From positions 113,776 through 177,775 of the forward strand of contig JAFROT010000030.1 of the NCBI GenBank assembly GCA_017429525.1: a stretch of 64,000 nucleotides of DNA. The letters run 5' to 3'. Below the pieces are notes generated by a model. The model worked only from the letters and a program-made list of their open reading frames with translations, ran no database searches and had not been told where the DNA came from. The first letter of the stretch is position 1. Each line of letters begins with the position of its first letter. Source of the stretch: Bacteroidaceae bacterium (GTDB lineage: Bacteria; Bacteroidota; Bacteroidia; Bacteroidales; Bacteroidaceae). Positions 6,797 through 45,303 of the stretch are shown one piece after another. Position numbers and translations under genes: made by a program.

Positions 6797-7035
6797 ATTT
6801 ACTATTTGACAATTTACTATTTACAATTTATTGACCGTCTTATGATTTACTATTTGACAATTTACTATTTACAATTTATTGACCGTCTTATGATTTACTA
6901 TTTGACAATTTACGATTTACAATTTATGGGCAATGGCTTTTATTGACGACAGTTATGCTCTTGATGCATTGATTATAGGCAAGTTACCAAAGACCAGATA
7001 AATGGTAAATCGTAAATGGTCAAATCGTAAATGGG
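6797..7035. repeat. 48-bp tandem repeat (2 perfect copies plus 1 diverged) with an inverted tttacgattta-type arm
   Basis: Unit atttactatttgacaatttactatttacaatttattgaccgtcttatg at 6797-6844 and 6845-6892, with a variant copy from 6893. The reverse-complement-like arm ataaatggtaaatcgtaaatggtcaaatcgtaaatggg lies at about 6998-7035. Confidence 0.85.
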
Positions 7036-7036
7036 A

Positions 7037-10561: not shown

Positions 10562-11658
10562 AAGTCCTTCGCACCATACTGGTCAATCTTTTCGTGGGAG
10601 CCAACATCGCAGTCATTCTGCTGATGTGGCTCACGTGTCTGTCCACCTACCTCAACCCGTCGTCGTGGCCACGGCTGAGCCTGCTGTCATTGACCTTCCC
10701 CGTATTCCTGGCGTCCGACTTGGCCTTCATCGTCTTCTGGCTGATCTTCAAGATTCGGCGCGTCTGGATTCCCATCGTCGGCCTGTTGGCCTGCGGCAGT
10801 TTTGCCCGCGATTACTTTCCGCTCAATCTGCCCTCATCCCCCACGGGCGACTCGCTCAGGGTGCTTACCTTCAACGTCCACGGGTTCGGCGGAGCTGATG
10901 CCATCCTTCCTGATGGCAGGAATGCCATCGTCGAATACATCGAGGCTTCCCAAGCCGACGTGATCTGCCTCCAGGAGTCTCATATGGCCAAGCATCGTGA
11001 TTCCTTAGACCTGAAGTTGCAGGCGCTGGGCTATGAGCACTACCACCACGCTACCGTCAGTTTCTACTCCCGCCTGCACATCCTTTGGGCCGACAGCCTT
11101 GCGCTGCCCAGCCGCACCAACAGCGGCGTGGTCGCCCACCTGCTTTACGAGGGCGACACCATCTTGCTCATCAACAATCATTTCGAGAGCAATCATTTCA
11201 CCCCTACAATGCGCGAAGCCTACGTCGACGCCATCAAGCAATCGACGCTTAACGCGCCCTCTCGTCTCATGGGCGACTCCCTGCGGCGCGAGCTCTCGCC
11301 CATCGTACGCCTCCTCTCCGAGGCTGCCCCCTATCGGGCCGCTCAGGCCGACAGCATCAGCAACATCGTCAGCCGGTGGGCGCCACGTCCCGTGATCCTT
11401 TGCGGCGACTTCAACGAGACGCCCGTCTCCTACCCCCATCGACTCCTCACACGCACACTCACCAGCGCCTTCGTCCAGAGCGGCAACGGACTCGGTATCA
11501 CCTTCCACGCCCGAGGCTTTCCCGTACGCATCGACCACGTCCTGTTCAGTGGCGACGTCTGGCAAAGTCATCACACTGTCATCGACAATACCTTTAAATA
11601 CTCCGACCACCTCCCACTTTCCACCATTCTGACACGGAAAACGCCGAAAAAGAGGTAA
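10558..11658 (+). CDS. endonuclease/exonuclease/phosphatase (EEP) family membrane protein
   Basis: ATGA overlap with the rhomboid gene. N-terminal TM helices, LRVLTFNVHG, ICLQES, GDFNETP, SDHLPL. Confidence 0.8.
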   Translation: MKVLRTILVNLFVGANIAVILLMWLTCLSTYLNPSSWPRLSLLSLTFPVFLASDLAFIVFWLIFKIRRVWIPIVGLLACGSFARDYFPLNLPSSPTGDSLRVLTFNVHGFGGADAILPDGRNAIVEYIEASQADVICLQESHMAKHRDSLDLKLQALGYEHYHHATVSFYSRLHILWADSLALPSRTNSGVVAHLLYEGDTILLINNHFESNHFTPTMREAYVDAIKQSTLNAPSRLMGDSLRRELSPIVRLLSEAAPYRAAQADSISNIVSRWAPRPVILCGDFNETPVSYPHRLLTRTLTSAFVQSGNGLGITFHARGFPVRIDHVLFSGDVWQSHHTVIDNTFKYSDHLPLSTILTRKTPKKR

Positions 11659-11717
11659 AAAGCATCGGAAAAACCAAATATTTGGCCTTTTAGCGTCGCA
11701 CATACACAAAAAAACTG

Positions 11718-30427: not shown

Positions 30428-31075
30428 TCAATATTCTTCTGGGTAATTCGTTCTGCAATCATAGCAAAGGCCTTTGGGATCCAGGCATTTGACGAGGATG
30501 CTCCGCTCTTTTCTTATCGGGTCGAAGGAAACGCAAACGCCCATGGCGGCTCCGATACCCTCCACCCAGCTGTCCTTGAACTTGTTGTCAGAGGTATAGA
30601 CGTCTACGACATTACGCATGATTCCCTCTATATATTTGCGAGGGGGATTAGTGGGTAGGAGGATGTAGCCGTACCAGCGTAAGATATTGCCCGATACCAG
30701 ACCAAAATCATAGAGCAGCCGTTCATCCCGCTTGCCTCTGTCGACGAACTTCACTTTCATCAGTGTGTCGCGCACGGCTCCGATGTAGTGCCATTCGGAG
30801 TCGCCATAGGTGGCCGCCTCGCGCAAGTACATCTTTTTATAATTCTTGCCTTTAAGGAGCGTGTCCCCTGCAATCTGATAGCGATATCTCTCGTGCAGAT
30901 CGTCGGTGTTTTCCGCAGCTGCGTAAACCCATACTTTTCCCTCTTCTGCAAAACTGTGATAATCCTCTGGAACCACCCGCTCGCTGTCGGGGACGATGAT
31001 ATCGTCTACAGTGCAGCCGAAGAAAGAGGACGCAATCAGGAGACAGAAAAAGGGTTTGATCAAAACTCTTGACAT
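30428..31075 (-). CDS. hypothetical lipoprotein
   Basis: Lipobox LLIASSFFGC. No recognisable domain. 6 nt upstream of the beta-barrel gene. Confidence 0.55.
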   Translation of the reverse strand: MSRVLIKPFFCLLIASSFFGCTVDDIIVPDSERVVPEDYHSFAEEGKVWVYAAAENTDDLHERYRYQIAGDTLLKGKNYKKMYLREAATYGDSEWHYIGAVRDTLMKVKFVDRGKRDERLLYDFGLVSGNILRWYGYILLPTNPPRKYIEGIMRNVVDVYTSDNKFKDSWVEGIGAAMGVCVSFDPIRKERSILVKCLDPKGLCYDCRTNYPEEY

Positions 31076-31117
31076 TGTATTGCTATTCCTGGTTATATTG
31101 GTATAACGTTTAAGATG

Positions 31118-31575
31118 TCAATTTATTTTAAGTTGAGCGCCTAAATTTACTTTGAAACCATTCTTTATGAAAACCCTGTGATTACCTTGAATAGTCAACT
31201 TGCCTCCGTTGACAATCACATTCCCTTCTGCTTCTAAGTCTGTTACGTCATTTCCAACATAAATGTTATCGCCAGTGATAGTAGAGTTGGTTGAAAAAAT
31301 TCGATTCTGCACATATACATTATTTCCGATATTTTTATGAACCTCCGTCGTAAAGGCTGCATAATTAGGTTTAGTAACAGTTACGATAAAATCAGCCGCA
31401 TTGGTATGGGATAAATCAAAAGAGTAACTGGATTATAGTATCATCAACAGCCACCGTCGATAGCAAAGTTAAGTCCTTTATAGAGCTTGGAAACTCAAGC
31501 GTAGAGCTCATATCGTCAAACTTATGAATACTAATCGGTACGGGAATGATGCTAATATTGTCAAGTGAATCAATA
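31118..31575 (-). pseudogene. frameshifted 3' fragment of a large surface-protein gene
   Basis: Two minus-strand reading segments, (R)IDSLDNISIIPVPISIHKFDD...TIIQLLF* and SYSFDLSHTNAADFIVTVTKPNYAAFTTEV...GNHRVFIKNGFKVNLGAQLKIN*, joined only by a frameshift near 31430. No start or N-terminal part. AT-rich. Confidence 0.6.
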
Positions 31576-31577
31576 CG

Positions 31578-31721
31578 TTACTTCATCAGCACCTTCCTAC
31601 CGTCCCTGATATAGACTCCTTTCGGGAGCACGGAGGGCACGGAGCAGGCAGAGGGCACAGAGAGGCGGCGACCAGAGAGGTCGTACCAGTTTCCCAGACT
31701 CTTCGAGGCTTCCTGCTCACT
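31578..31721 (-). pseudogene. orphan T9SS C-terminal sorting domain remnant
   Basis: Minus-strand frame reads EQEASKSLGNWYDLSGRRLSVPSACSVPSVLPKGVYIRDGRKVLMK*. GC-rich, no upstream coding body. Overlaps the stop of the mini-HlyD ORF. Confidence 0.7.
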
Positions 31722-32244
31722 CTATCCCCAATACACGAGGCAGTAGGTGGCGTTCACGCAAGATTATGGTGGCAGTGGCATCCATCAACCAAGGATCTTC
31801 GCGACGATCGAGGCTCCATAGCTCGAGTTCAAAACCACCTTTACTCGTGTGGTAATCTCCTACGCAGAGCTCAATGGGATAGAGTCCCGTGGAGTCTGAA
31901 TGCTGAGGGAGCGACTGAAGTTTGGCTGTGTAGTAGCCCCAACTCCTGTCCTTCACGTCCAGGGTGATGTGTGCCTCCATCCCTGGCCGCAATTGCTTCA
32001 AATTCGATGCTTCCACGTTTGTTCGAAAGTACCATTCGTTCGGTATACCTGTCACTTCCAGCGTCCCGTGTACCACCAACGTGTCCGGCCACGGAGTAAA
32101 CCAGCCCGCTGTCAGCAACGCCACCACAATGACAGTCATCAAGGCCATCCAACAGCGTAAAGTCCATTTCGGAGTGTTCCACTTGAACATCTCCTTTTTC
32201 TCGCTGTGATCCCACAACATTTTTTTGTTCTTGTTTGCTCCCAT
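31717..32244 (-). CDS. truncated HlyD-like adaptor (TM anchor plus beta-barrel, no coiled-coil hairpin)
   Basis: WMALMTVIVVALLTAGWFTPWPDTLVVHGTLEV parallels YVSLVVTALLMVMVVLSVLITYPDTVIGEVTLTS of the 430-aa HlyD. The C-terminus ATATIILRERHLLPRVL parallels GSAEIITEPKRLIERLF. Confidence 0.6.
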   Translation of the reverse strand: MGANKNKKMLWDHSEKKEMFKWNTPKWTLRCWMALMTVIVVALLTAGWFTPWPDTLVVHGTLEVTGIPNEWYFRTNVEASNLKQLRPGMEAHITLDVKDRSWGYYTAKLQSLPQHSDSTGLYPIELCVGDYHTSKGGFELELWSLDRREDPWLMDATATIILRERHLLPRVLGIE

Positions 32245-32340
32245 TTCTTTTGATTATTAAATGTTATATACAAATTTTATATAATCCTTAAGCCTTAAGT
32301 ATACTAAAGATGTCGGGACCTACACTCACATATAATAAAA

Positions 32341-34533
32341 CTACAATTCTGGAATTCCCTGAGAAGCATAGAGGCTGTAGTAGAAACCTTTCTTCTCCAT
32401 CAGTGTCATATGATTCCCGACCTCAACGATATGCCCGTCATGCATTACAATGATTTGATCGGCCCCTCTGATTGTACTAAGTCGATGAGCAATAACTACA
32501 ACTGTCCTGTTCTCAAAAGCACTTTCCAATGCATTGACAATTTTACGTTCATTGATTGTATCAAGAGCATTGGTAGCCTCATCAAGAAAAAGGAATTGCG
32601 GGTTACGATAGAGGGCTCGAGCTATCAATAAACGTTGTTTTTGCCCTCCGCTGAGGCCTCTGCCACGTTCGCCAATCATAGTTTTAAATCCTTTGGGCAT
32701 TGCATTAATTTCATCAAGAATTTGTGCTGTTCGGCAGCAATCCAAGACTCGTTCATGGTCTATATGTTCATCATCCAGAACAATATTTCCTAGAATAGTA
32801 TCACTGAACATCTTTCCATCTTGCATTACAACACCACAAATACTTCTCCATTTACGCAGATTTATGTTCGAAACATTCATTCCTCCCATCTTAATCTCAC
32901 CGAAAGATGGTTTGTAAAGACGTACCAATAGTTTTAACAGTGTGGACTTTCCACTTCCGCTTCCACCCACAATGGCAGTCACTTTGTTTTCTGGAATATG
33001 CAAATAGATGTTTTTTAGAACTAATGGGGCATTTGATGTGTACTGGAACACAACATTTTCAAACGTAATGTCTTTTTTTTCTGGCAAAATAGTTGTAGCC
33101 CCAAGCGAAAGCAATTCCTCCTCGTCTTCCAATTGCCGGATCTCATTCATCCGCAAGAATGATATCTTAGCATACTGAGCAGAAACGACAAAATTGATAA
33201 ATTGCACAAGTGGGCCATTGAGCATCCCAAGGATAAACTGTGTGGAAATCATTACGCCAAAGGTGATATCTCCTTTGATAACGGCTGTAGCACAGAAAAA
33301 GACTATCACCATATTCTTAATGCTATCAATGAATTGTGCTCCAAGATTTTGCATATTTGTAACAGCAAGAACTCGCTTGTTTACATGATACAGGCTTGCT
33401 TGTATGCCTTCCCATTTCCAACGACGCGAACGCTCATAATTGTAGATTTTAATATCTTGTATGGCCGACACCGTTTCAACCCAATAACTTTGGTTGCGCG
33501 AGACAAGTTCGAAGTACTGCCAATCCAATCTCTTGCGGATTTTCAAGAACAGAAGTACCCATGCTATATAGCAAACCGAGCCAGCAAGAAATACGAAGAA
33601 TATGGTTACATTATATACCAAGAGGATGAGTGAGAAAACCACAAACGTCAACAATGAGAAAATCATCGACAAAGAATTGTTCATGATAAACGCCCTTATA
33701 CGCTCATGATCCTGCGCTCGCTGAAGTATATCTCCAAGGAACTTATTCTCAAAGAACGTTACTGGCAGTTTCATCAATTTTATCAGATAGTCCGAAATCA
33801 GAGCCACGTTAACACGCGCAGTAATATGCATTAGTATCCAATCCCGCATCACATTGAATAACATCACACTTATCAATATGCAGACATTACCGATAAGTAC
33901 CATGTTTATGAAATTAATGTCCGAGGTACTTATACCCACGTCTATTACGGCTTTCGAGATAAAAGGCAGAATAGCTTGCAGAGCTGTCACAATTGTCATG
34001 ATACAGAAGATAAGTGCAAACTCACGAAGATATGGTCTGAAATAGCGCAACAAACTCACTATACTATCCTTCTGCTGACGGCGTTCCAATTCTGTTGCCT
34101 TGAAATCAGCAGTGGGTTCTATTGCCATCAAGACACCTGTTTGTTCACCTCTCAGATACCATCCATGACGAAACTCTTCATGCGTGTATCGGATATGACC
34201 TTTAGCAGGATCTGCCACATAGACGAATCTTTTGTCTGCATCATAGACAACTACGAAATGGCTTTCATTCCAGAATACTATAGCTGGTAATGGAACCTTA
34301 TACACCAAATCATTCAATGCGCAACGTATTACCAACGTATGTAATCCTATCTTTTCTGCACCAGTAGCGAGATTTGCTAACGAAACACCTTCTTTCGTGA
34401 TTCCTGAAAGATCACGCAGATACTGTAAAGAGTAATAGCGACCATAATACTTCGCCACCATCTTCAATGATGCAGGACCACAATCTTGAGAGTCCATTTG
34501 GTATTCTATTGGAAAGCGTCTAAAAAAGTTCAT
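32341..34533 (-). CDS. peptidase C39 domain-containing ABC exporter (PCAT, double-glycine leader processing)
   Basis: C39 catalytic QMDSQDCGPASLKMV and NESHFVVVYD. 6-TM domain. Walker A GGSGSGKST, LSGGQKQRLLIARAL, FLFLDEATNALD. Confidence 0.92.
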   Translation of the reverse strand: MNFFRRFPIEYQMDSQDCGPASLKMVAKYYGRYYSLQYLRDLSGITKEGVSLANLATGAEKIGLHTLVIRCALNDLVYKVPLPAIVFWNESHFVVVYDADKRFVYVADPAKGHIRYTHEEFRHGWYLRGEQTGVLMAIEPTADFKATELERRQQKDSIVSLLRYFRPYLREFALIFCIMTIVTALQAILPFISKAVIDVGISTSDINFINMVLIGNVCILISVMLFNVMRDWILMHITARVNVALISDYLIKLMKLPVTFFENKFLGDILQRAQDHERIRAFIMNNSLSMIFSLLTFVVFSLILLVYNVTIFFVFLAGSVCYIAWVLLFLKIRKRLDWQYFELVSRNQSYWVETVSAIQDIKIYNYERSRRWKWEGIQASLYHVNKRVLAVTNMQNLGAQFIDSIKNMVIVFFCATAVIKGDITFGVMISTQFILGMLNGPLVQFINFVVSAQYAKISFLRMNEIRQLEDEEELLSLGATTILPEKKDITFENVVFQYTSNAPLVLKNIYLHIPENKVTAIVGGSGSGKSTLLKLLVRLYKPSFGEIKMGGMNVSNINLRKWRSICGVVMQDGKMFSDTILGNIVLDDEHIDHERVLDCCRTAQILDEINAMPKGFKTMIGERGRGLSGGQKQRLLIARALYRNPQFLFLDEATNALDTINERKIVNALESAFENRTVVVIAHRLSTIRGADQIIVMHDGHIVEVGNHMTLMEKKGFYYSLYASQGIPEL

Positions 34534-35822
34534 TTTCCCTGTTGTGATTTTAGATTATCAAATAGCCGTTCGATGAGTCGTTTTGGTTCCGTAATAATCT
34601 CTGCTGAACCATGAGCTTCATACCCAACATCCAACGTAACACCGTAATTTGTCTGAAGTCCTTTTGGGAAATCCATCAATACCAAATAACTTTCCCTATT
34701 ACCGTTCAGAGTCTGCACTGATTGCTTTAAGTGCGAGATATGCTTCACTCGACCTTCCAAATGGCCAAACTCATCATAAGGATAGTTTTCTAGTTTCACA
34801 CTTACACGCTGTCCAACTTCCACTTTACCAAAACCTAAGGCTGATATATGTGCTTCACCGAAAATATTACCACGGAAAGGGAGTACAGTAAACAATATCT
34901 TCCCAGGCGTCACCATTTCATTCTCTCGCCAGAATCCCAGATATTCAAGACGCCCATTTATTGCAGACGTCAGAAGATAACGTTCCTTCCATTGTCGCAA
35001 TGAACTCCGCAATTCGTCTTCTTTCACCCGTACATAATTCAAAGCCTTATTGAGTTCTTCTTTCTCATTTATGCTCACTCGAGCTTTCTCAATTTGATTT
35101 TGCTGAATTTCCGACTGAGTTGAAAGGAAATTACTTTCTTGACTTATCTGCCTCTGCTCAAAAGCTATCACAGCACTATACCGATGTTCCATGTCTTCAT
35201 CACTGATGGCACCCTCATTATGTAATATACTATCTTTCACTAAGCGCAAACGTGATAGTTGCAAATCACCTTCATTCATTAGTAATTGGCGTTTCTGAAT
35301 CTCTGCTAAAGCATAATGAACCTGTATTTGTGCATCAAGCGACTGCAGCATATTCTTATAGACACTTGTCGAACGCAGTTGTTCCAGTTGCTGGCGAGCA
35401 AATACGACCTCATTGTACATACTACTTAAATTGCCTAATACCAATGACGGCAAGGGCTCGTTACTCATAGCATTACGACCTAAAAGGGAGTCCAGTAACA
35501 AAATGTCTGGCAACAACGCACCATCATCTACAAATGCAATAATATCCCCTACACAAACAGAGTCACCATCGGCATGCAACAGATGTAAACGCCCTGTCGA
35601 AGTTGCGACAAGACGGACAGGTGCGACCTCCGATGTTAAAGTAACCTCGCCAATCACGGTATCAGGGTATGTGATAAGGACGCTTAATACAACCATCACC
35701 ATTAATAAAGCTGTCACCACAAGCGATACATAGCGTGTCCATCCTGTCGGCATACGTTCAATTATATCTTGGACTTCTTCTGAACGGAACATCAGGTTTT
35801 CTTCATTTCGTACGGTATTCAT
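34530..35822 (-). CDS. HlyD family secretion adaptor protein
   Basis: N-terminal TM, long heptad-rich central region, C-terminal beta-barrel. ATGA overlaps with both neighbouring genes. Confidence 0.85.
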   Translation of the reverse strand: MNTVRNEENLMFRSEEVQDIIERMPTGWTRYVSLVVTALLMVMVVLSVLITYPDTVIGEVTLTSEVAPVRLVATSTGRLHLLHADGDSVCVGDIIAFVDDGALLPDILLLDSLLGRNAMSNEPLPSLVLGNLSSMYNEVVFARQQLEQLRSTSVYKNMLQSLDAQIQVHYALAEIQKRQLLMNEGDLQLSRLRLVKDSILHNEGAISDEDMEHRYSAVIAFEQRQISQESNFLSTQSEIQQNQIEKARVSINEKEELNKALNYVRVKEDELRSSLRQWKERYLLTSAINGRLEYLGFWRENEMVTPGKILFTVLPFRGNIFGEAHISALGFGKVEVGQRVSVKLENYPYDEFGHLEGRVKHISHLKQSVQTLNGNRESYLVLMDFPKGLQTNYGVTLDVGYEAHGSAEIITEPKRLIERLFDNLKSQQGK

Positions 35823-37300
35823 AAGTATTCCTCCTCAAGATTCTTTTTTTTTACAAAATCATACAGTGTAATTGTGCGTAGCTGATAGTATTCACTGAAC
35901 AAAGATTGTAGCGCTGAGAGCATATTCTTGAGAGATTCGCGCAGAGATTTGTGTGCATCTATAACCTCTGCAAGTGAAAACTCACCTTGGCTGAAACGAA
36001 GCATGGCAAGACGATATTGCTCCTGAGCTAAGGCGTATTGTTTTAGACCCAAACGATAACTGGCTGACGATTGATTGTAAACTTTTATGCTTTTATGGAT
36101 TTCTTGTTCTGCTTTTAGTAGAGATTCATTTATTCCTATTTGTGCCTGCTGGTAGTCATTCTCAGCCATCCTTCGACGATTACGACTAATACCCCAGTCA
36201 AAAGATGGAATACTCAGTGTCAGGCTTATACTTTGTCGATGATTAGGATGTCGATAGGCATTGCTGAATGTGTGAGCAAATTGATTAAGTCCATAATTAA
36301 TTGAAAGTTCTCCTCCGAGCCGAGTCGACAAACGCTGTTTCCTCAAAGTCTGCAACACCTGTTGTCGTTGAAGTTCCAAAGCTAGAACTTTCGGGGTGTT
36401 GGCCTGAGCAACAGCATACACCTCATTTTCGTCCAGCAAAAGTGGTAGGGCTGCAGCATCTGGTTTCACTACGTTGACATCCAACTCCACTAGGCCCAAA
36501 CGAGAACGTAACAAAAACAAGGCATCATTCAACTCTGTCTGAGAAGCCACCAAGGCTTGTTCTGCTTCAAATCGCTCAAGACGAATCACGTTTAATTCAT
36601 AGTCTGTGACATATCCGAGTTTACGACGCAACTGGCCAAAAGCCAACAAGGTATCACTAGCAGAAACATCCTGCTCTGCCTGCTCTTTCTCAACTTGAGC
36701 CATATAAGCTTTCAGATAAAGACGAGCTACATCTTGTTGCTCGTTTGCTAGAGCAGTGCAAAGCGTCTTCACAGCTACTTTGTACTGCAGGCGATTGATG
36801 GAACGCTCTATGATGTAGTCTTTATAGCCACCACGAAGACCTTGGCTATAACTTAAAGAGAATGGTGTAGAACTAAAGTTGTTTCGTGAGCCCGTGAATT
36901 CGCGCAGATAACTTAATCCAGAACTTGCCGTTAATATGCCGCCCAAAGGCCCAATCCTTTGCGAAAGGGTCAATGTAGCAACTGATGTGTTGACATAATC
37001 CTCCACACTGTGATACTCGCCTTTCTGTGGGTCTTGTAGAAGTCTCAAAGAGCGATTGAAACTTATTGGGTTCACGCTAAGTCCAATCATCGGCAGAAAG
37101 TCTTTCTTGTAGTTCTCATATTTGAGGACAGAGTTCTCATAATGCAATCGAGCTGAACGCGAACGAGGAGAGAGAAGAGCCTGCTTTTCTACCAAATAAG
37201 CAAACGACTTCGTATCCGTTTCACTAGACATCAGATTAAATCTGCATGACATCATCAATATTATAGCAACAAAAAGCCTATCCATTTTTATTGTACTCAA
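35819..37300 (-). CDS. TolC family outer-membrane channel
   Basis: 493 aa, signal sequence, two-fold repeated helix/strand pattern. First gene of the TolC-HlyD-PCAT operon. Confidence 0.8.
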   Translation of the reverse strand: MSTIKMDRLFVAIILMMSCRFNLMSSETDTKSFAYLVEKQALLSPRSRSARLHYENSVLKYENYKKDFLPMIGLSVNPISFNRSLRLLQDPQKGEYHSVEDYVNTSVATLTLSQRIGPLGGILTASSGLSYLREFTGSRNNFSSTPFSLSYSQGLRGGYKDYIIERSINRLQYKVAVKTLCTALANEQQDVARLYLKAYMAQVEKEQAEQDVSASDTLLAFGQLRRKLGYVTDYELNVIRLERFEAEQALVASQTELNDALFLLRSRLGLVELDVNVVKPDAAALPLLLDENEVYAVAQANTPKVLALELQRQQVLQTLRKQRLSTRLGGELSINYGLNQFAHTFSNAYRHPNHRQSISLTLSIPSFDWGISRNRRRMAENDYQQAQIGINESLLKAEQEIHKSIKVYNQSSASYRLGLKQYALAQEQYRLAMLRFSQGEFSLAEVIDAHKSLRESLKNMLSALQSLFSEYYQLRTITLYDFVKKKNLEEEYL

Positions 37301-37354
37301 TAATAACGTTTTCTACATCACATACTCCCTAAGTTCTGGAATAATAAGGAAATG

Positions 37355-37399
37355 TTCAAAAAAATCCTATATATGGGTGCCCAAATCTGGCACCCATAT
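37355..37399 (-). terminator. rho-independent terminator of the 970-aa gene
   Basis: atatgggtgcc (37371-37381) pairs with ggcacccatat (37389-37399). On the minus strand it is followed by ataggattttttt. Confidence 0.75.
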
Positions 37400-37503
37400 T
37401 GCAATAATCAATCATTTATTTAACGATCCATAAAACAACATTAAAAATGATAACTTTATCCAGTCGCTTTATCCATAATCAAGTCCGCATTAACTCGCCA
37501 TAC

Positions 37504-40416
37504 TCATTTGTTATACAGCAGTTGTCCGTCAGCCTCTTGGCCTTCAGCCTCAACGAGGATGCTGGTTTGCTGGCTGTTGTTGTAGAAGGTGACGTTCGCT
37601 CGGCCATCGTCGTCGAGTTGCAGGTCGGGATTCCAGTAGAGCGTGCGACGGTAGTCCTTCTGACCCTCCACTGGCGGGTTGCGCTGATAGTCGGGATGGT
37701 AAAAGTCTTCCTGATAAGCGAATCCTGGCAGGATGTAGCGGCGGTCACGATAAGTTACCCGGCGTGCCCAGTCAGGGTAGCGGTGAAGCGACACCTCCAC
37801 GCTGGGCTGGTTGCCCTGTTCGTAACGCTCATCACCCTCGCGACGAGGCGAGTAATCGGAGTAGACATACACTTTATCCAGATATTCCAGACGTTGGTAG
37901 CGTCTCTTGTCGCCACGCGGCATGAACGGTGGCGTAAATCTACTCATTGCGTCCTCATCCTTGCTCACGAAACGCATAGGCAACGAGTCGAAGTAGAGCT
38001 TGAAGTCGTAGAAACGGTTCATACCCATATCACCGATATAGAGGCTGGCAGTCTGCGTGCCGAGGTCGTCGGAATTGGAATAGTGCGTCATCAGCCCGGC
38101 ATCCATAATTTCATTGAACACGGCATAAGCATCTTTCACATAGGCGGGCTTGGAGAGGTCTATGCGCCGCTTACCTCCATGACTGGCACGTACGATGACT
38201 TGTTCCAGTAGATGATCCCCATCTGTCGTGAGCGCTGATGGGAGGACATCTTCACGTAATGAGGCATTATGTACTTGATAGTAAGTGTAAGGTTTGACAA
38301 AACGGGGATAAGGGAAGTTCAGACGGACATAGTATTCGGGAAATGTCTTCAGCCGATCGTTTTCGTCTGCCTCCATCTCCACCCAGTTGAACGTCTTGTT
38401 TTTGCTCCACTTTGCCGTGTCGCTGGCTGCGAGGAAGAAGACGCACTCGCCCTCAAAGCGAGGCAGTTCCATACGGAAGGCACCACCGCGTGTCTCCACA
38501 TCGCCCACGATGCCATTCTTAGGATCATCGGGATGGAAGAACTCAGCATGTACGCGCACCTCACGTCTCAGATTGCCCCGCTCGATGAAGCGACGTTCAC
38601 TCTCCCTGACGCGCTCCCTCTGCTCGGATGACTCATGCGTCAGCGCATTGTACGACCGATTGTCAATCGCCTGATTTCCGAAACCGTCATTGTCTACACG
38701 GCTCCGCTCCACAACGCTACTGGAGGGACGTAACCCAAACGTTCGTTCGCCATCATATTGCTTTTCAGTTCCAATGCCATCGAGCAGCAGATAGTGGGAC
38801 TCCAGTGCTGCAGCATAGTCCTCATCCTCCTCAGCATACGTATTGTAGCGGTTGACGGTACCCGTCACCATCTGTGTCTGCTCTGCGGGATGTGTCAGTT
38901 CGAAGGCACCACTGACAGCCATGTCCTGCCAGTTGAAACGGCGCCAACCCTGCGTCAGCATCAGCAGGTCGAGCCCACGACGATGCTCCTCGTCGTCCTT
39001 CTCGAAGAACCACTCCGCCTGTGGCACGAAGCCCTTGATTTCCGATGCCAGCAACATCTCTGTCATGATATTGCCGCTATCGAATGTCACATCCGTGTGG
39101 GCGGCATCGCGGACGGCGAGAGAGAAGTAAGACGCTGAATGAGAAGCATTGGCTGAGGATGTCTTCGTTTTCGCTATCGTCAACGCTACTTTTTCGAATG
39201 GCTTGTATTGATCCTTTACGCCGTTGATGGCCAACGTTGGCGTCATCATATCCGTGGACGTGACGAAGAAAAGACGGTCGGCATACACCCGGCCGTCTGC
39301 ATCGAAGACCGTCAGTTGGTGGACACCAGGGGAAGTAGTGGGAAGTTGAAAGACAAAAGAGTTAGACGATTGAGTGTCAGCATTGCCTAATGTCTCGAAA
39401 TGCTCGAGGACACCTTCACGCATCACCGTCACCCCCAGTTGTTTCTCCTGCGTCTTGCCGCAGACATAGATCTCAGCCTGCCACTCACCGCTGTGCTGAT
39501 GCAACTGCAGTGCTACGCCTTCGGCCACAACAGTTTTGATTTCCTGACGAACTTGCGCGCCGTCGTTGCTCGCAGTGAACACCACTTCGTAGTTCTGTCC
39601 CGCTTCAGGTGTGAACGTGAATGTACCTCGCCCACGGTTTTCGCTCGTCACGAAATCCACGGTCTCACCTTGATTGTTTTCTATTTTCTGATTCTCATTT
39701 TTCACCCTGATTGCTAGTGAGCCTTCGCGAACCTCACCCTCGTTCGTTGCCACCTCGAAAGCGACGCGGCACGGCACACCTGCTACGAGGTTACCACCCT
39801 CGGGGAATAACGACAACCGCAGCTGGGGCTGCGAAGGGGCATCCTTGAAGTAACGGCGTAGCGGGCGAAGTGTCATATCTTTGTAGAAATCACCCGCTTC
39901 CTTAGGTTTGTCATAAACAGGGAACACGCGCGAGTAAAGCTTGTCGTAGTCACGGTAATAGTCCTTTGCCATGCCTTTGTTGTAAAAGCTCAGTTCTCGT
40001 GTCCAGCGATGCGCATGCTCCGTCTGGCCCCAGTTCAGCTGCCAGCGTGTGTACGCACGCAATTCGAAATACCCACTATAGAGCGAATCGGGTAAGGCGA
40101 AGAAGCCATGCCCTCGACCGTCTTGCATCTCGATCAGCTTACGCTCAACGAGGTAGCCATCGTGGTTCCATAGTTCGGCATACAACACACGCGAGATCTT
40201 GCTTGGGCGGTCGCCATTCGTCCGCCGCGTGTAGGCAGCAAACCAGATGGTGTCGCCGAGATAGTAGCTTGTATTATCCATGTGTACATAAACCTTCTCT
40301 TGCGGAATGCGCTCCCCAAAGAGGCGCAACCGCTGCGTGAGGCTGTCCATGCAGCTCTCTGCGGAGGCCGCGAATGTGCTGAGTAGAGTCAGCATACTGA
40401 CGAAAATAGTCTTCAT
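37504..40416 (-). CDS. large secreted protein with MG2/alpha-2-macroglobulin-like N-terminal region
   Basis: Signal MKTIFVSMLTLLSTFAASA. QEKVYVHMDNTSYYLGDTIWFAAYT...VLYAELWNHDGYLV...GYFELRAYTRW pattern. Host-like GC. Family call made from memory only. Confidence 0.55.
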   Translation of the reverse strand: MKTIFVSMLTLLSTFAASAESCMDSLTQRLRLFGERIPQEKVYVHMDNTSYYLGDTIWFAAYTRRTNGDRPSKISRVLYAELWNHDGYLVERKLIEMQDGRGHGFFALPDSLYSGYFELRAYTRWQLNWGQTEHAHRWTRELSFYNKGMAKDYYRDYDKLYSRVFPVYDKPKEAGDFYKDMTLRPLRRYFKDAPSQPQLRLSLFPEGGNLVAGVPCRVAFEVATNEGEVREGSLAIRVKNENQKIENNQGETVDFVTSENRGRGTFTFTPEAGQNYEVVFTASNDGAQVRQEIKTVVAEGVALQLHQHSGEWQAEIYVCGKTQEKQLGVTVMREGVLEHFETLGNADTQSSNSFVFQLPTTSPGVHQLTVFDADGRVYADRLFFVTSTDMMTPTLAINGVKDQYKPFEKVALTIAKTKTSSANASHSASYFSLAVRDAAHTDVTFDSGNIMTEMLLASEIKGFVPQAEWFFEKDDEEHRRGLDLLMLTQGWRRFNWQDMAVSGAFELTHPAEQTQMVTGTVNRYNTYAEEDEDYAAALESHYLLLDGIGTEKQYDGERTFGLRPSSSVVERSRVDNDGFGNQAIDNRSYNALTHESSEQRERVRESERRFIERGNLRREVRVHAEFFHPDDPKNGIVGDVETRGGAFRMELPRFEGECVFFLAASDTAKWSKNKTFNWVEMEADENDRLKTFPEYYVRLNFPYPRFVKPYTYYQVHNASLREDVLPSALTTDGDHLLEQVIVRASHGGKRRIDLSKPAYVKDAYAVFNEIMDAGLMTHYSNSDDLGTQTASLYIGDMGMNRFYDFKLYFDSLPMRFVSKDEDAMSRFTPPFMPRGDKRRYQRLEYLDKVYVYSDYSPRREGDERYEQGNQPSVEVSLHRYPDWARRVTYRDRRYILPGFAYQEDFYHPDYQRNPPVEGQKDYRRTLYWNPDLQLDDDGRANVTFYNNSQQTSILVEAEGQEADGQLLYNK

Positions 40417-40457
40417 AGTCGTAGGCTTTTTAGATTGGTTAGACATGATTTCGACGG

Positions 40458-40465
40458 CAAAGGTA
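40458..40465 (-). promoter_or_regulatory. -7 box (TAccTTTG) for the 970-aa gene
   Basis: Plus-strand caaaggta, only 12 nt from the listed ATG at 40446, so the ATG at 40416 is the likely start. Confidence 0.45.
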
Positions 40466-40820
40466 CGGACTTTTCAGTCACCCGTCAAGCATCTAGTGTG
40501 GAAAAATGAAATGAAAGAAAAGTTATTTAAGCCGCTCTTTTTTTATCAATTATCCTTGTATGCTTACATTAATACTGTGGAAATCGTATCTTTATTATAG
40601 CTCATATTATTGGAAAAATCAGTCCTACTGGATTGTATGTGAGTTCAGGTATAGGACATTAAAAGCCAAATCTTATCTGTAGTAAAGGAATAGACTATTG
40701 GCCGAGGCATTTGAACAATGATCATAATTTACATTTTTCCGATAAAAGTGACTCACGCCTAACCCAGCAGAACTGATTATTATATTAAAATTAATATATA
40801 GAATAATCCACACAATGAAA

Positions 40821-41471
40821 TTACACAGTAGGCAAAGTATATTCAGCCCCTTGTTGATTAGATGTGTTTCGAATTATTACTTTAATACCTCCTTCTACTT
40901 CTTCAAAATGATAGGCAATATACATTAGACCTACATGTTGACTAAGCATAGTACTTCTAGCCCAATTAAAGAAATTCGTCATTTCAATAGAGTTTTTTTC
41001 TAAGCCTGATTGACCAGCAGCTTCATTCACAATTTGTTCCAACCATACTTGATTCACATTTGGTTCATCATCTGTACTAAAACCGAATAATGTTGAATAT
41101 TCAGACACATAATCCCAAGATACTTTGAATTGCTTATCTGAATAAAAAGACATCAATGCTTGATAGTAGTTATTCTCATCTGAAACACCATAAGCAATCT
41201 GATAGTCAATGTCAGACATCACTGTTCCCCAATTTACACTTGATGATGTTCCAGAATAGTCTTCAAAATAATTAAGGAATTCATCAATATCAGGATAAGA
41301 GTCACTTGGGAAATAAGAAGGATTACCATAAAGTGCAATCATCTCCTCATAAGAGAGATAAGCATCCTCCCCGTCTAAGCTCATTCCACCTACCAGACTT
41401 TTACTCTGAGTAGAGCTTACAACTTTGTAGTTCTTTGCGAGTTGCTCCAATGAATAGCTTTTAATTTTCAT
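40821..41471 (-). CDS. 216-aa acidic protein with double-glycine-type leader (candidate PCAT cargo)
   Basis: N-terminus MKIKSYSLEQLAKNYKVVSSTQSKSLVGG|MSLDGED. No Sec signal, TM helix or Cys. The mature part is rich in D/E/Y/S. AT-rich gene 28 nt downstream of the GT14-MT gene. Confidence 0.6.
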   Translation of the reverse strand: MKIKSYSLEQLAKNYKVVSSTQSKSLVGGMSLDGEDAYLSYEEMIALYGNPSYFPSDSYPDIDEFLNYFEDYSGTSSSVNWGTVMSDIDYQIAYGVSDENNYYQALMSFYSDKQFKVSWDYVSEYSTLFGFSTDDEPNVNQVWLEQIVNEAAGQSGLEKNSIEMTNFFNWARSTMLSQHVGLMYIAYHFEEVEGGIKVIIRNTSNQQGAEYTLPTV

Positions 41472-41499
41472 AATTTTATTATTTTAAAATGATTAATAG

Positions 41500-42945
41500 C
41501 TACCTCGCCAATAGCAGCGAGAGTTTATGATTTCTTACTAAATTCTGATTCAAAATAGATGTGCCAAGTTCATCTTTTTTGAAGCCCAACTCTTGAAACG
41601 ATATTTCGTATTCATTAATGCTTTTTAAACCCTTTTTAAAAGATTGAAAAGCCTCTATAATCAAGATATATCGTTTTGAAAGACGAGCAATATTTTGTAC
41701 CGCTTTATCCCTGAACTGCATAGGAATACAGCTCAGTGTATCCATACTTAATACGAGGTCAAAAGGGGAATCTACTTCTATATTATCTGTTAAATCTGCT
41801 ACCCCACACAACTCATCATTTTTGGGGAGTAACAAAGATGACAACTTTGGAGTATATGGATTTGCATCATAACCAGCCGTTGGGATCCCTCTTTTTCTTA
41901 GAGCTGCTGTATAGAAACCTGCTCCACATCCAATATCCAGCACATTTAGTATTTTCAAGGAGCGACACGTTTTATAGATCTCACGAAGAATATTATAATC
42001 ATAAGAATACCGCATAAGACCATCGTATCTCCAGCCACCAGTTTTAGTAACTTCGTATGCAGACTGTTTTAGTAAGTAGGTATCTATATTGTGGACTAAG
42101 TCCGCACAAATTGGATACTCCATCTTTCGTGCAAAATAGAAATCTTTGGATGATGCCAACGCATGAAAATGCTTCATTCCCAGATTTGCAGGACAATTCC
42201 CATTCTCTTCTCTCCAAATGATAAATCGAAGATCTGAGGGTACGATTCTACTTTTCCCAACAATATTTACCAATACCGTTGCAATGTAATATTCCTCTGC
42301 AGCAAAAGTCCAACGAGCACGATGATAAAAAGAAGGATGTTGCGATGTATAGTGAATAATTGCTTTGGTTGCTTCATAAGTTATAGAAAACCATTGTGTA
42401 CTTCCATAAAGATGGTCAAACTGATCTGGAATACGCCGTTTGATTCCCAACTTATGTTCTAAGTTAATTATTTTTTGCATCCACTTTATAGCGTCTTTGC
42501 TTTCTTTATTTATATAATCATAAGGGAAATAGTATTGGAATCTAGAAAACGTATATTGATCCCAACGAGGATTTGGAATATTTGCATAACGAATAAATTC
42601 TTTGCCCTGTTTCTTTTCAAAAAAAGAGAGAAATTCATCAAGTGGTTTAATTGGGTAATCTTGCCCACTTATGAGATGAATATAATCGTAGCCACCATCC
42701 TTCACCACTTGTCGAAGTAAAAAAATTTCTGTTTTAAGAATGCTATGTCCCCCCCAGTGAACATTATACTTTCGATACACTGCACGAACTTGTGATATAC
42801 AAGCTATTGAAGATAATTCTTCATCTGAAATAACAGCTTTCTTGTCAATATGTACATAAATAGAGCAGTCCTTAATAAAATACTCTATCAAGTGGCGAAG
42901 CTGACCAAAGTCTTTGTGCGCTAATATCAAAATGGCATGTTTCAT
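41500..42945 (-). CDS. GT14 (core-2/I-branching type) glycosyltransferase fused to a class I SAM-dependent methyltransferase
   Basis: N-terminal half MKHAILILAHKDFGQLRHLIEYF...YVHIDKK...VHWGGHSILKTE...HLISGQDYPIKP. C-terminal half VLDIGCGAGFYTAALRKRG...FDLVLSMDTL. Confidence 0.75.
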   Translation of the reverse strand: MKHAILILAHKDFGQLRHLIEYFIKDCSIYVHIDKKAVISDEELSSIACISQVRAVYRKYNVHWGGHSILKTEIFLLRQVVKDGGYDYIHLISGQDYPIKPLDEFLSFFEKKQGKEFIRYANIPNPRWDQYTFSRFQYYFPYDYINKESKDAIKWMQKIINLEHKLGIKRRIPDQFDHLYGSTQWFSITYEATKAIIHYTSQHPSFYHRARWTFAAEEYYIATVLVNIVGKSRIVPSDLRFIIWREENGNCPANLGMKHFHALASSKDFYFARKMEYPICADLVHNIDTYLLKQSAYEVTKTGGWRYDGLMRYSYDYNILREIYKTCRSLKILNVLDIGCGAGFYTAALRKRGIPTAGYDANPYTPKLSSLLLPKNDELCGVADLTDNIEVDSPFDLVLSMDTLSCIPMQFRDKAVQNIARLSKRYILIIEAFQSFKKGLKSINEYEISFQELGFKKDELGTSILNQNLVRNHKLSLLLAR

Positions 42946-43017
42946 TGCAAACTTCTATAGCTATTCCTAATGATGATTGAAACACTTTTACATAAATTTT
43001 TGGGAGAAACCGAGCTT

Positions 43018-43392
43018 CTATAGCTCGATCTCTCCGATGAAACTTTGTTCACCACGTACGACTTCAATGAGGTAAGTGCCACAAAGTTCTGACGGCAGTA
43101 TGATATACGTCTCGTCAGCGGGGACATAGGTGGTATAAACGATTTGCTCGTCACCATTCTCATCTTCCTCCTTAATATATACCGTGAACGCGCAGGAATC
43201 CCAGAAGTAGAGAGTATGGTCTTCAAGACTGACGGAAGGAACACGGATAGGAGCGCGACTATAACCAGGTTCTGGATCTGTATAAGTGATGGGGCCATCG
43301 AGCACCAACGGTATACGATTATCAATTGAATCACCTGCGAAGGTGTTCAGGGCTGCCAGAGTGAGGCAGAGGGATAGGAAAAGTCTCTTCAT
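43018..43392 (-). CDS. DUF3244-like small secreted beta-sandwich protein
   Basis: Signal MKRLFLSLCLTLAALNTFAG. LEDHTLYFWDSCAFTVYIKEED...CGTYLIEVVRGEQSFIGEIEL pattern. Confidence 0.6.
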   Translation of the reverse strand: MKRLFLSLCLTLAALNTFAGDSIDNRIPLVLDGPITYTDPEPGYSRAPIRVPSVSLEDHTLYFWDSCAFTVYIKEEDENGDEQIVYTTYVPADETYIILPSELCGTYLIEVVRGEQSFIGEIEL

Positions 43393-43461
43393 AGTTTTGA
43401 TGAGTTTGTTTGAAATAGGTAAATAATGATTTTAAGTTAAATGGATTTCCGCAATCCGTTG

Positions 43462-43469
43462 CAAAGGTA
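43462..43469 (-). promoter_or_regulatory. -7 box (TAccTTTG) for the DUF3244/GT14-MT/GG-protein operon
   Basis: Plus-strand caaaggta, 70 nt upstream of the ATG at 43392. Confidence 0.5.
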
Positions 43470-43588
43470 TAGCGATGCGACGAAAAAAAATTTCACAATA
43501 TTTCAATTCTCACTTTTCGATTTCACAATATTTCACTCGCAAAGAGAAAAAAGTGGCCGTAAGAGATTGGGATTCCGTGAATTCTATG

Positions 43589-43596
43589 TATCTTTG
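43589..43596 (+). promoter_or_regulatory. -7 box (TAtcTTTG) for the TPR-HTH regulator
   Basis: tatctttg, 25 nt upstream of the ATG at 43621. Confidence 0.5.
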
Positions 43597-43620
43597 CGCA
43601 TCCACAAAAAAGTTTCGATC

Positions 43621-45303
43621 ATGAACCGCTTTATATCTATCTTTTGTTGTGTTTTTCTCTTGACAGGATGTCAGGAACGCTCCATCAAGAGCGATCTTGA
43701 TGTCTACGAGAGCAACCTCGAAAAGACTCCGAAGGCCATCTATGAGATCCTGAATGGCCTACAACCGACGAACGATGGAGACCGCGCACGCCACGCCTTG
43801 CTGACTATTAAGGCGAAGAACTTGGCCTATATCCCGTTGGAGGGGAAAGATACCATCGCTATCTTAGATGCCATCGACTATTACCAGAGACGCAGCGTCA
43901 CGGAACAGGTGATGCTGGGGTACTACCTTCTCGGCAGTATCTACCGGGACTTGGGGGATGCGCCACGAGGCGTGGAGGCTTTCACAAGAGTGATTGAGGT
44001 CGCAGACACCACACGGAAGGACTGCAACTACAGACTGATGGCAAGAGCAGAGGCGCAGAAAAGTAATCTGCAATCAGCCCAAAGTGTTCTGCCAAAAGCT
44101 ATTGAATCATCCTATCGTGCAGAATATTACGCAAGGATGGCAAAAGACACTTCCTATGTGTTTGAACTCGCTTTAGGAACTATAGGTTTATCAATGCTCA
44201 ATGGGAACCCCAAACCTTTATTGGAGGAAGCACCGCTCCTTATGGAAAAATGCCTGGAATTTGGTGATACAGCAATTGCTCTCGGCTACGCCAAGGCTTG
44301 GGCTTGGTATTACCTACAATTAGGAATTGTAGATAAAGCAGAGCAGTTGGTTGCCTTCTATGACCAATTTAATGGCACCCCCTATCCCATCTACTACGGC
44401 ACTAAGGGAGAACTCTATCTGGCTCGTCACCAGGTGGATTCGGCTGAAAGATGCTTCCGCAAAGAGCTGAAGGCCACGGACTGGAACAACAGGCAAACAG
44501 CCTATCGAGGACTGAAGAAGGTGTTCGAGCAGCGGCATCAAGCGGACTCGGCGCTGAAATATGCAACCTTGCAATGTGATGCCGTAGACAGCGACTACTA
44601 CCATAAGGTATCCGATGCCATCATACAGATGGAGCACGTCTATAACTATGAGGCAGCGAAGGAACAGGCTCGGCGCAGCGAGATGGCACAACAGCGAATG
44701 AGGTGGACAATAGGATGGATCGTGATGGCAATGGCAGTAGCCGCGTTGGCTGCCCTGCTCGCATTCCGCACCTACCGTGACCGACAACGGCGCCGACTGC
44801 TCCAGGAGGAGGCGAAGAACGAAGCCATCAGGGCACAACTGGCAGAAAAAGACAAGCAGTTGGCGCTGGAGGAGAACCGAAGGATGAAGAAACTGCTGGA
44901 TTACCAGAAGAAGATGGAAGGGATGCAGGCCACCATCGAGGAGTTCCGTGAAGAGGTGCGGTCGTTAGATGCCTTAGGCGACGGCGTACGACAGATGCGC
45001 AAGCAACTGGAAAGCGGGAAGCATGCCTCGATCCGCAACTGGGAGGCACTGCAGCATCAGGTGGTCAGACTGCACCCCGACTTCGTCAAGACGTTGCGCA
45101 AGGAGATCAACCCTCTACAGGCGAACGACCTCCATCTGGCGTTGCTCATCAAGATGGGATTCAAGCCGAGCGAGATTGCCGTACTCATGGACAAGTCGCC
45201 CTCCAGCATCTCGATGGCACGCACCCGCCTCTACGCCAAGCGCTTCGGCACCAACCCGCCAACGCCCGAAGCCTTAGACGAATGGATTGAAGAGATAGAA
45301 TGA
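43621..45303 (+). CDS. transmembrane TPR sensor with cytoplasmic coiled coil and C-terminal HTH
   Basis: Lipoprotein-like signal MNRFISIFCCVFLLTGCQ. TPR-like repeats. TM WTIGWIVMAMAVAALAALLAF. Heptad-rich segment. C-terminal LHLALLIKMGFKPSEIAVLMDKSPSSISMARTRLYAKRFG. Confidence 0.7.
   Translation: MNRFISIFCCVFLLTGCQERSIKSDLDVYESNLEKTPKAIYEILNGLQPTNDGDRARHALLTIKAKNLAYIPLEGKDTIAILDAIDYYQRRSVTEQVMLGYYLLGSIYRDLGDAPRGVEAFTRVIEVADTTRKDCNYRLMARAEAQKSNLQSAQSVLPKAIESSYRAEYYARMAKDTSYVFELALGTIGLSMLNGNPKPLLEEAPLLMEKCLEFGDTAIALGYAKAWAWYYLQLGIVDKAEQLVAFYDQFNGTPYPIYYGTKGELYLARHQVDSAERCFRKELKATDWNNRQTAYRGLKKVFEQRHQADSALKYATLQCDAVDSDYYHKVSDAIIQMEHVYNYEAAKEQARRSEMAQQRMRWTIGWIVMAMAVAALAALLAFRTYRDRQRRRLLQEEAKNEAIRAQLAEKDKQLALEENRRMKKLLDYQKKMEGMQATIEEFREEVRSLDALGDGVRQMRKQLESGKHASIRNWEALQHQVVRLHPDFVKTLRKEINPLQANDLHLALLIKMGFKPSEIAVLMDKSPSSISMARTRLYAKRFGTNPPTPEALDEWIEEIE

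Follow-up and report, generated by a model that had tools for sequence, protein, structure and literature searches.

The window analysed here, a 64,000-nucleotide stretch of a Bacteroidaceae genome (contig JAFROT010000030.1), contains on its minus strand an open reading frame (ORF) for a protein of 216 amino acids (aa), which is the subject of this analysis together with the genes around it. The protein starts with MKIKSYSLEQLAKNYKVVSSTQSKSLVGG, a 29-residue segment ending in two glycines that we treat as a candidate double-glycine (GG) leader, and continues with MSLDGEDAYLSYEEM; it is referred to below as the GG protein. Translation and composition agreed with an earlier reading of the letters alone (hereafter the sequence-only reading), which had described an acidic, Cys-free protein at positions 40821-41471. 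The Cys count is 0 and the isoelectric point (pI) of the whole protein is 4.17, with a basic leader (pI 9.9) and a predicted mature part of 187 aa and 21.4 kDa, the pI of which is at most 4.05, the floor of the routine used. Asp and Glu make up 15.5% of the mature part as compared to 3.2% for Lys and Arg, and Ser and Tyr account for 11.8% and 9.1%, respectively. Judged by hydropathy only, the protein contains neither a Sec or lipoprotein signal nor a transmembrane (TM) segment, as had also been stated before; its leader is hydrophilic, and a maximum Kyte-Doolittle mean of 0.83 over 19 residues indicates neither a TM helix nor a signal-peptide h-region. Sequence searches of Pfam, NCBIfam and PDB matched the protein to no family, and weak matches to DUF7882 and Big_4 (E 0.01-0.03) were set aside as noise.

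The ORF is part of a conserved cluster of eight genes, which encode a presumed TPR regulator, a DUF3244-like protein, a fusion of a GT14 'Branch' glycosyltransferase and a methyltransferase (hereafter BranchMT), the GG protein, a large MG2-like protein, an outer-membrane factor (OMF), a HlyD-family adaptor and a peptidase-containing ABC transporter (PCAT) (Table 1). The transporter at 32341-34533, to which the sequence-only reading had assigned a C39 peptidase domain, is a true PCAT: the domain aligns to PCAT1, LahT and ComA and keeps the catalytic residues Gln12, Cys18, His92 and Asp108. The HlyD gene overlaps each of its neighbours by 4 bp. BranchMT lies 28 bp upstream of the ORF, has no signal peptide and is a candidate tailoring enzyme. 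Two of five orthologues of the DUF3244-like protein match the Pfam family (best E 7.5e-5) and the window copy does not, and the TPR protein matched BT3442_fam of NCBIfam with an E-value of 7.6e-15 and 54.6 bits, far under the cut-off of 940. No gene for a small GG peptide, as an alternative substrate, was found near the window PCAT.

Table 1. Features of the GG-protein locus, with positions in the window.
Feature	Positions	Strand	Basis or remark
GG-protein ORF	40821-41471	minus	216 aa
Basic double-glycine-type leader, codons 1-29	41385-41471	minus	Predicted cleavage after Gly29
Predicted mature cargo, codons 30-216 and stop	40821-41384	minus	Ser/Tyr/Asp/Glu-rich, Cys-free, predicted alpha/beta globular fold
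Divergent TPR-containing protein, 620 aa, one predicted membrane helix, distantly BT3442-like, presumed regulator	43441-45303	plus	TPR and DUF6377 matches
DUF3244-like small protein, 124 aa, signal peptide, BT_3441-type Ig-like fold	43018-43392	minus	Conserved in cluster
GT14 'Branch' glycosyltransferase and class I SAM methyltransferase fusion (BranchMT), 481 aa	41500-42945	minus	Pfam Branch 7.7e-19, Methyltransf_11 2.8e-8
MG2-like large secreted protein, 970-980 aa, Sec signal	37504-40446	minus	Weak Pfam MG2 match
TolC-like outer-membrane factor (OMF)	35819-37300	minus	Pfam OEP 5e-21; NCBIfam TolC/NodT subfamilies
HlyD-family periplasmic adaptor	34530-35822	minus	TIGR01843 6.9e-22, HlyD_3
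PCAT: C39, ABC membrane domain and ABC ATPase	32341-34533	minus	Pfam C39 4.8e-34; TIGR03796/TIGR01193
ORF of 175 aa, one predicted TM helix, downstream of PCAT	31717-32244	minus	Position only; membership in the system uncertain

Counting from Gly28-Gly29, the core-equivalent of the window leader reads V18-S19-..-Q22-S23-..-L26-V27-G28-G29. The Leu at -4, Val at -12, Tyr at -15 and Ser at -7 given by the sequence-only reading were all recovered in this register, and the hydrophobic residues L26 and V18 are as expected of GG leaders at -4 and -12. The segment SLEQLAKN, which had been likened to the LSxxELxxI core, is out of register with it: it lies at -23 to -16, and SLEQL is part of a conserved N-terminal extension of the leader rather than of its core. 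In the window sequence alone, the leader motif does not rise above chance and is weak evidence. A loose motif scan of the window, requiring GG or GA at residues 13-40 with at least three of four hydrophobic positions, returned approximately 35 start positions, nearly all of them in ordinary genes or spurious ORFs. What gives the leader its significance is its conservation together with the gene context, rather than the motif alone.

The family is rare, with about 20 relatives, all of them from gut assemblies of Bacteroidales and mostly from ruminants. Among 5.8 billion sequences, a search retrieved only the protein itself, a fragment and a pair of homologues with 39% identity. Exhaustive profile searching of 1.84 billion representatives yielded 13 matches and a second profile search another six, all from ENA or Logan gut assemblies, many of which were ruminant. 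Three further members were reached through a neighbouring gene in metagenome-assembled genomes of GTDB (Bacteroidales, Bacteroidaceae and Prevotella). A scan of the GTDB genomes with a close-subfamily alignment and two scans of JGI metagenomes gave no member, with confirmation by the first sequence only, so that distant members were possibly missed. One match of the exhaustive search, a 2256-aa protein with six repeats matching residues 31-82 (P0010), was discarded as low-complexity similarity.

Alignment of 17 sequences showed that G28-G29 is invariant (17/17) and stands at a fixed distance from Met1, with no insertions or deletions in the leader. Position -12 is hydrophobic in all sequences, position -4 in 16 of 17, and Glu occupies position -8 in 15 of 17, with position -7 being variable. 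These residues at -4, -8 and -12 agree with the Leu(-12)-X3-Glu(-8) signature described for recognition by C39 (PMC8277102). The leader is the best-conserved part of the family, its mean pairwise identity being 46%, followed by residues 30-58 (40%) and 113-135 (26%); elsewhere the value drops to 11-13%. The sequence-only reading had proposed to look among homologues for a conserved GG in front of a varying mature domain, which is the pattern observed here. The relatives display the canonical L(-12)/E(-8)/L(-4)/GG pattern, and leaders such as VVLNESELNILKGG are textbook double-glycine leaders. One relative (P0015) scored 26.1 bits against the Bacteroidetes GG-leader model TIGR04149, above the curated cut-off of 25 bits, and another (P0011) matched weakly at 13.2 bits; the N-terminal 49 aa of the window protein gave no match to this model at E-values up to 10. 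Judged from these comparisons, the window leader, which had been called less canonical because of Ser at -7, is a degenerate version of the relatives' canonical leader, and its homology to the GG-leader model runs via these relatives. A single exception to the GG motif was found, in a member at L023:11450-12106 (loci are denoted by L-numbers; HMM E 2e-9), where AG replaces GG and the predicted cleavage motif reads IIAG followed by R.

The mature parts are very acidic in all family members and the leaders are basic in nearly all. Acidic cargo combined with a basic leader is typical of substrates of type I secretion systems (T1SS). The layout of secondary structure seems to be conserved along the full length of the family members, many of which contain linkers rich in Ser, Gly, Asn and acidic residues in the middle. 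Because the layout seems to be retained throughout, the family pattern may represent fast divergence rather than domain swapping. The S/T of the conserved motif LSYEEM was considered as a site of glycosylation by the GT14 domain and rejected, since Asn and Phe are found there in relatives; in the structural model it resembles an N-cap (S-x-x-E) that opens helix 41-48.

In every locus with enough flanking sequence, the GG gene was found in an operon with a C39 peptidase or with PCAT type I secretion genes, and the C39 genes were linked to it in four different gene orders. The link to the transporter made in the sequence-only reading extends to the relatives, in which the GG gene adjoins a PCAT, HlyD/OMF genes or a stand-alone C39 gene. 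In L021 the order is BranchMT-GG-MG2-like-OMF-HlyD-PCAT, with the first three genes 12-16 bp apart, an overlap between MG2-like and OMF in the ORFs as called, and a 4-bp overlap of HlyD and PCAT. In L017 the GG gene follows 13 bp after BranchMT-OMF-HlyD, and in L100-L102 it lies 18 bp after the PCAT gene and is followed by the MG2-like gene. In L009, L011, L012 and L013 the order is BranchMT-GG-MG2-like, followed by a stand-alone C39 peptidase of 134 aa. The latter has neither a signal peptide nor an ABC part, carries its Cys in a DCGP motif like the catalytic Cys of the PCAT, and shares 47% identity with the window PCAT's C39 domain. Its genes lie directly after the MG2-like gene at L009:13637-14041, L011:5522-5926, L012:4106-4510 and L013:9301-9705.

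The other components recur around the GG gene as well. BranchMT stands immediately upstream of it in L001, L009, L013, L020, L021 and L023, and the TPR protein is present in L001, L009, L013, L017 and L021. Wherever the downstream flank is visible, the next gene is MG2-like, namely in the window, L001, L009, L013 (twice), L020, L021, L023 and L100. In L013 (1931-9294) the pair of GG and MG2-like genes is tandemly duplicated, with 76% identity between the MG2-like copies and 54% over only 85 aa between the GG copies. The cluster genes diverge at very different rates: between the window and L021 the identity is 82% for PCAT, 57% for BranchMT and 48% for the MG2-like protein (33-48% between clusters), while the GG proteins align over 57 residues only. 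This makes the GG protein the fastest-evolving member of the cluster, in keeping with what an extracellular effector should show. The MG2-like protein as a cognate immunity protein is unsupported, because it diverges more slowly than the GG protein and belongs to a family more than 100 times larger.

The AlphaFold model built from the 17-sequence alignment had a mean predicted local distance difference test (pLDDT) score of 85.1 and a predicted template modelling (pTM) score of 0.78; an earlier run with three sequences (pLDDT 53) was not used. Residues 31-216 are predicted to form one confident alpha/beta globule (pLDDT ~90), with a beta-hairpin (31-40), helices and, at the C-terminus, a sheet of three strands (185-214). 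Residues 1-30 contain two short helices only, have a pLDDT of 51-56 and lie outside the fold; the sequence-only reading had held that a leader integral to the globular fold would speak against its proposal, and the model shows no such arrangement. Foldseek searches of the PDB (best E 0.034, TM 0.16) and BFVD (best E 0.012, TM at most 0.24) gave no match. The fold prediction and structure search suggested earlier thus yielded a confident globule with no counterpart in these two collections, in line with the statement that the mature part resembles nothing recognised.

Taken together, the ORF likely encodes the precursor of a type-I-secreted protein with a 29-residue double-glycine leader. This reading draws on a conserved and apparently Sec-independent leader, predicted to be disordered and with an invariant GG in the aligned relatives, on the homology of the relatives' leaders to the Bacteroidetes GG-leader model, and on a PCAT with intact catalytic residues that shares a conserved cluster with HlyD and OMF genes. 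The leader would dock in the C39 domain of the PCAT, which would cut after Gly29, and the acidic domain of 187 aa would be threaded through the PCAT-HlyD-OMF conduit to the outside in a single step.

Several observations weigh against this reading. The first is cargo size, which the sequence-only reading had rightly called unusual for a GG-leader substrate. Mature microcin V (MccV) has 88 aa, and mature CtA, the cargo of PCAT1, has 66 residues (PMC8277102). Export of MccV by its PCAT falls sharply at 116 aa (PMC10231218), and the cargo studied here is about twice as large as this limit and nearly three times as large as the cargo of PCAT1. Secondly, the window leader matched no leader HMM and, with Gln at -8 and Ser at -7, departs from the signature Leu(-12)-X3-Glu(-8)-Leu(-7) described for recognition by C39 (PMC8277102). 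Thirdly, the ORF is parted from the transporter genes of the window by the 2.9-kb MG2-like gene and by spacers of 375 bp and 204 bp, and the GC content differs among the segments (31-37% in the ORF and BranchMT, ~53% in the MG2-like gene and ~40% in the T1SS genes). Some clusters hold a stand-alone C39 gene with no ABC gene before the end of the contig, 1-2 kb after C39, and maturation without T1SS export may be possible in these. Finally, the predicted fold yields no functional clue.

The low-GC segments (40447-43000 and 31000-37400 of the window) differ from the genome background of ~55% GC, which suggests that parts of the cluster are of mosaic or horizontal origin. The AT-rich spacer of 375 bp between the ORF and the MG2-like gene (40447-40820) has no Rfam match and no convincing ORF; in L021 and L001 the corresponding genes are 12 bp and 48 bp apart, respectively. 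The window yielded no Rfam or tRNA match, and scans for sigma-70 promoters and terminators, the models of which do not cover Bacteroidetes promoters, performed no better than on shuffled sequences.

The stand-alone C39 genes also speak for a rather unlikely alternative, in which C39 cleaves the leader and no release follows. The protein would then be matured in the cytoplasm or sent to the periplasm or surface, as an envelope component acting with the MG2-like protein. The signal-less C39 of the four loci with no visible ABC gene fits this proposal, as do the constant adjacency and joint duplication of the GG gene and the Sec-signal-bearing MG2-like gene, and export to the periplasm only has been proposed for HetC-type PCATs (PMC10986499). 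However, OMF and HlyD genes are present in the operons of the window, L021 and L017, and a PCAT gene as well in the first two, which favours transport through the inner as well as the outer membrane. The contigs with stand-alone C39 end so shortly after this gene that a transporter gene may lie beyond their ends.

It is improbable that the GG motif is incidental and the protein cytoplasmic, with a role such as that of a chaperone, an immunity factor or a BranchMT substrate. The failure of the window leader on every leader HMM and the chance-level motif would agree with such a role, and conservation that runs on past the GG into residues 30-58, at nearly the level of the leader, means that N-terminal conservation by itself is no proof of a leader. 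Against this stand the invariant GG at fixed spacing, with Glu at -8 and hydrophobic residues at -4 and -12 kept in the relatives, the relative that passes TIGR04149, the disordered leader in the model and the linkage to C39 in four gene orders.

The protein is even less likely to be a precursor of the kind that gives rise to peptides made on ribosomes and modified after translation (RiPPs), in which a short modified stretch would be the product and the rest a discarded scaffold. In favour of it, TIGR04149-type clusters that encode small Cys-rich GG peptides and radical-SAM proteins do contain BranchMT homologues, and many family members have the linkers described above in their middle. Yet residues 31-216 are predicted to form one globular domain, the window protein has no Cys, and its cluster contains no radical-SAM gene or other RiPP maturase. 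A chance open frame in AT-rich DNA, suggested by the location in a 31-37% GC island, is already refuted as far as computation allows, given the full-length homologues (39-42% identity) with synteny kept, the confident predicted fold and the identical protein on 14 independent contigs.

Beyond export of the protein, a wider interpretation is possible and remains tentative: the cluster would constitute an undescribed effector system of Bacteroidales, in which protein-sized GG-leader cargos are tailored by BranchMT, cleaved by C39, exported by the type I route and act together with the MG2-like protein. More speculatively, the cytoplasmic BranchMT could add modifications such as glycosyl and methyl groups to the precursor ahead of its export, the MG2-like protein could be an extracytoplasmic partner (a receptor, scaffold or protective factor), and the rapidly diverging C-terminal two-thirds could confer an activity outside the cell that differs between strains and is of the bacteriocin or effector type, with an antagonistic or surface-effector role. 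Glycosylation of the GG protein is suggested here by gene adjacency. Such a system may be described as a protein-sized glycocin or as a T1SS-delivered polymorphic effector, and would belong to a wider class of clusters, common in gut Bacteroidales, in which a TPR/DUF3244 head is combined with modifying enzymes, a leader-bearing protein and an MG2-like protein.

Comparison with known systems places the GG protein closest to cargos of double-glycine transporters. Like class II microcins such as MccV (exported by CvaB, CvaA and TolC) and the PCAT1-CtA pair, it combines a GG leader and the absence of a Sec signal with a HlyD adaptor, a TolC channel and a C39-ABC transporter with a Gln/Cys/His/Asp site, encoded near the substrate gene. 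It differs from them in its globular cargo of 187 aa and 21 kDa, as compared to known cargos below 10 kDa, in the 29-aa leader with an additional conserved N-terminal segment, and in the cluster, to which BranchMT, the MG2-like protein and the TPR/DUF3244 pair are added. Classical RTX substrates of T1SS, on the other hand, carry nonapeptide GG repeats and an uncleaved secretion signal at the C-terminus, and the C39-like domain of their transporter is inactive, whereas the window PCAT keeps its catalytic Cys and the ORF protein has no match to RTX or HemolysinCabind.

The leader style MKK..L..L...E...I.GG is shared with the TIGR04149 (GG_sam_targ_CFB) RiPP precursors, one family member being above the cut-off of that model, and so are the occurrence in Bacteroidales, the linkage to PCATs and, in some clusters, Branch-type enzymes. 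However, the window protein has no match to the model, and its core is a folded domain of 187 aa instead of a short Cys-rich peptide. No radical-SAM or pseudo-radical-SAM partner (TIGR04148/TIGR04150) was matched among the proteins of the window cluster in Pfam and NCBIfam; the loci with radical-SAM genes were all different BranchMT loci, L030 and L037 among them. Glycocins (such as sublancin, glycocin F and pallidocin) likewise combine a leader-bearing precursor, a dedicated cytoplasmic glycosyltransferase and a SunT-type PCAT in one cluster. Their glycosyltransferases are of the SunS type (GT2), whereas the window enzyme is a GT14 'Branch' domain fused to a methyltransferase. They are peptides of approximately 40 aa with disulfides, some of them S-glycosylated on Cys, whereas the window protein is Cys-free and five times larger.

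Bacteroidetocins resemble the GG protein in their Bacteroidetes producers, and a double-glycine leader and an antagonistic role are mentioned for them (PMC6671954); they are set apart from the GG family by their description as small peptide toxins related to class IIa bacteriocins. The BT_3442/BT_3441 pair of B. thetaiotaomicron, a TPR protein and a DUF3244 protein (BT_3441, PDB 3d33), heads the BT_3442-BT_3433 MACPF cluster (PMC2954219). This module shares with the window a multi-domain TPR protein and a small Ig-like DUF3244 protein at the head of a secreted-protein cluster. The cargos there are MACPF and lipoproteins, whereas the window has the GG protein, the MG2-like protein and the T1SS genes, and the similarity to BT3442 is weak.

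The GG family recalls polymorphic toxins in its conserved N-terminal module of about 58 aa followed by a hypervariable remainder (11-26% identity) and in being the fastest-evolving gene in the cluster; a second family in the same slot has CHAP/NlpC-P60 and possibly JAB-toxin C-termini. In contrast to them, the GG protein of the window has no recognised toxin domain and no small adjacent immunity gene; the gene downstream encodes the MG2-like protein of ~970 aa, which evolves more slowly than the GG protein. No description of the GG cargo family or of the cluster composition was found in the family libraries and literature searched. Double-glycine/PCAT secretion is already known; it is for the size of the cargo, its unmatched fold, a family with no Pfam or NCBIfam model and the composition of the cluster that no counterpart was met there.

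Export by PCATs with double-glycine leaders is considered to serve peptides and mini-proteins below ~10 kDa. If our reading is correct, a family of globular 21-kDa cargos would roughly double the accepted size range of PCATs and provide a natural model for their cargo capacity, with a bearing on recombinant secretion. Being the fastest-evolving gene of a conserved eight-gene cluster is a signature of an extracellular effector in competition or in host or surface interaction. The recurrent pairing of GT14-methyltransferase fusions with GG-leader precursors points to unstudied tailoring chemistry of proteins or RiPPs, and the links of the MG2-like family and the TPR/DUF3244 module offer a way into widespread, uncharacterised gene clusters of Bacteroidales.

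In other Bacteroidales, BranchMT homologues adjoin PCATs and small Cys-rich GG-leader peptides (L033, L036, L037 and L041). Since BranchMT stands beside GG-leader precursors in these loci, the pairing suggests that it acts on leader-bearing precursors. In L029, LGG ends the leaders ('MKELRDLESELRNESLKSEMDATVILGG...') of two precursors rich in Cys and Asn, one of 118 aa (6893-7249) and one of 222 aa (10996-11664). Each precursor gene has a BranchMT copy of its own directly behind it and, in front, a gene for a ~724-aa protein the N-terminus of which is signal-like; upstream there is also a candidate radical-SAM gene, identified by eye.

A second family occupies the slot between BranchMT and the MG2-like gene at L022:5962-6921, L024:1826-2569, L028:1654-2385 and L039:8674-9405, in L026 (four copies), in L027 (three copies) and in L047. 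Its conserved N-terminal ~60 aa (KGTxxNPYTxxEFxxxLxxGxWxGGxVxGxGYV) are followed by hypervariable C-termini, among which CHAP/NlpC-P60 domains (E 4e-5 and 6e-4) and one weak match to Toxin-JAB1 were identified. It looks like an undescribed polymorphic-toxin family. We do not claim homology between the GG family and this 'NPYT..EE..W.GGYV' family, as hhalign aligned only 16 N-terminal residues with a probability of 12%. The ORF of 175 aa downstream of the window PCAT had no family match in Pfam or NCBIfam and may encode a short adaptor-like protein; ORFs of ~178 aa with a weak HlyD match, which resemble it, follow the PCAT genes in L031 and L033.

The MG2-like family is very large, with more than 3000 matches at E <1e-10 among 8000 scored. 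Many members are ~1400 aa long and contain CarboxypepD_reg domains (PF13715/PF13620), and none is named or has a solved relative. The clusters that hold orthologues at ~61% identity also encode TPR-like and DUF3244-like proteins, a GT25-like enzyme, a methyltransferase and a VKOR-domain protein; the N-terminal half of the VKOR-domain protein is C39-like by eye, and Pfam matches VKOR alone. Proteins of 162-178 aa beside MG2-like genes at L103:7534-8043, L104:8780-9268 and L105:9374-9910 begin with 'MKFNEVLSSGEALTPEEMMAIPVG' and go on with long (SG)n repeats. The 'MKFNEVLSSGEALTPEEMMAIPVG' start fits a GG-type leader of the form L(-12)T(-11)..E(-8)M(-7)..I(-4), but ends in VG, and the three clusters also hold an OMP_b-brl_3 barrel.

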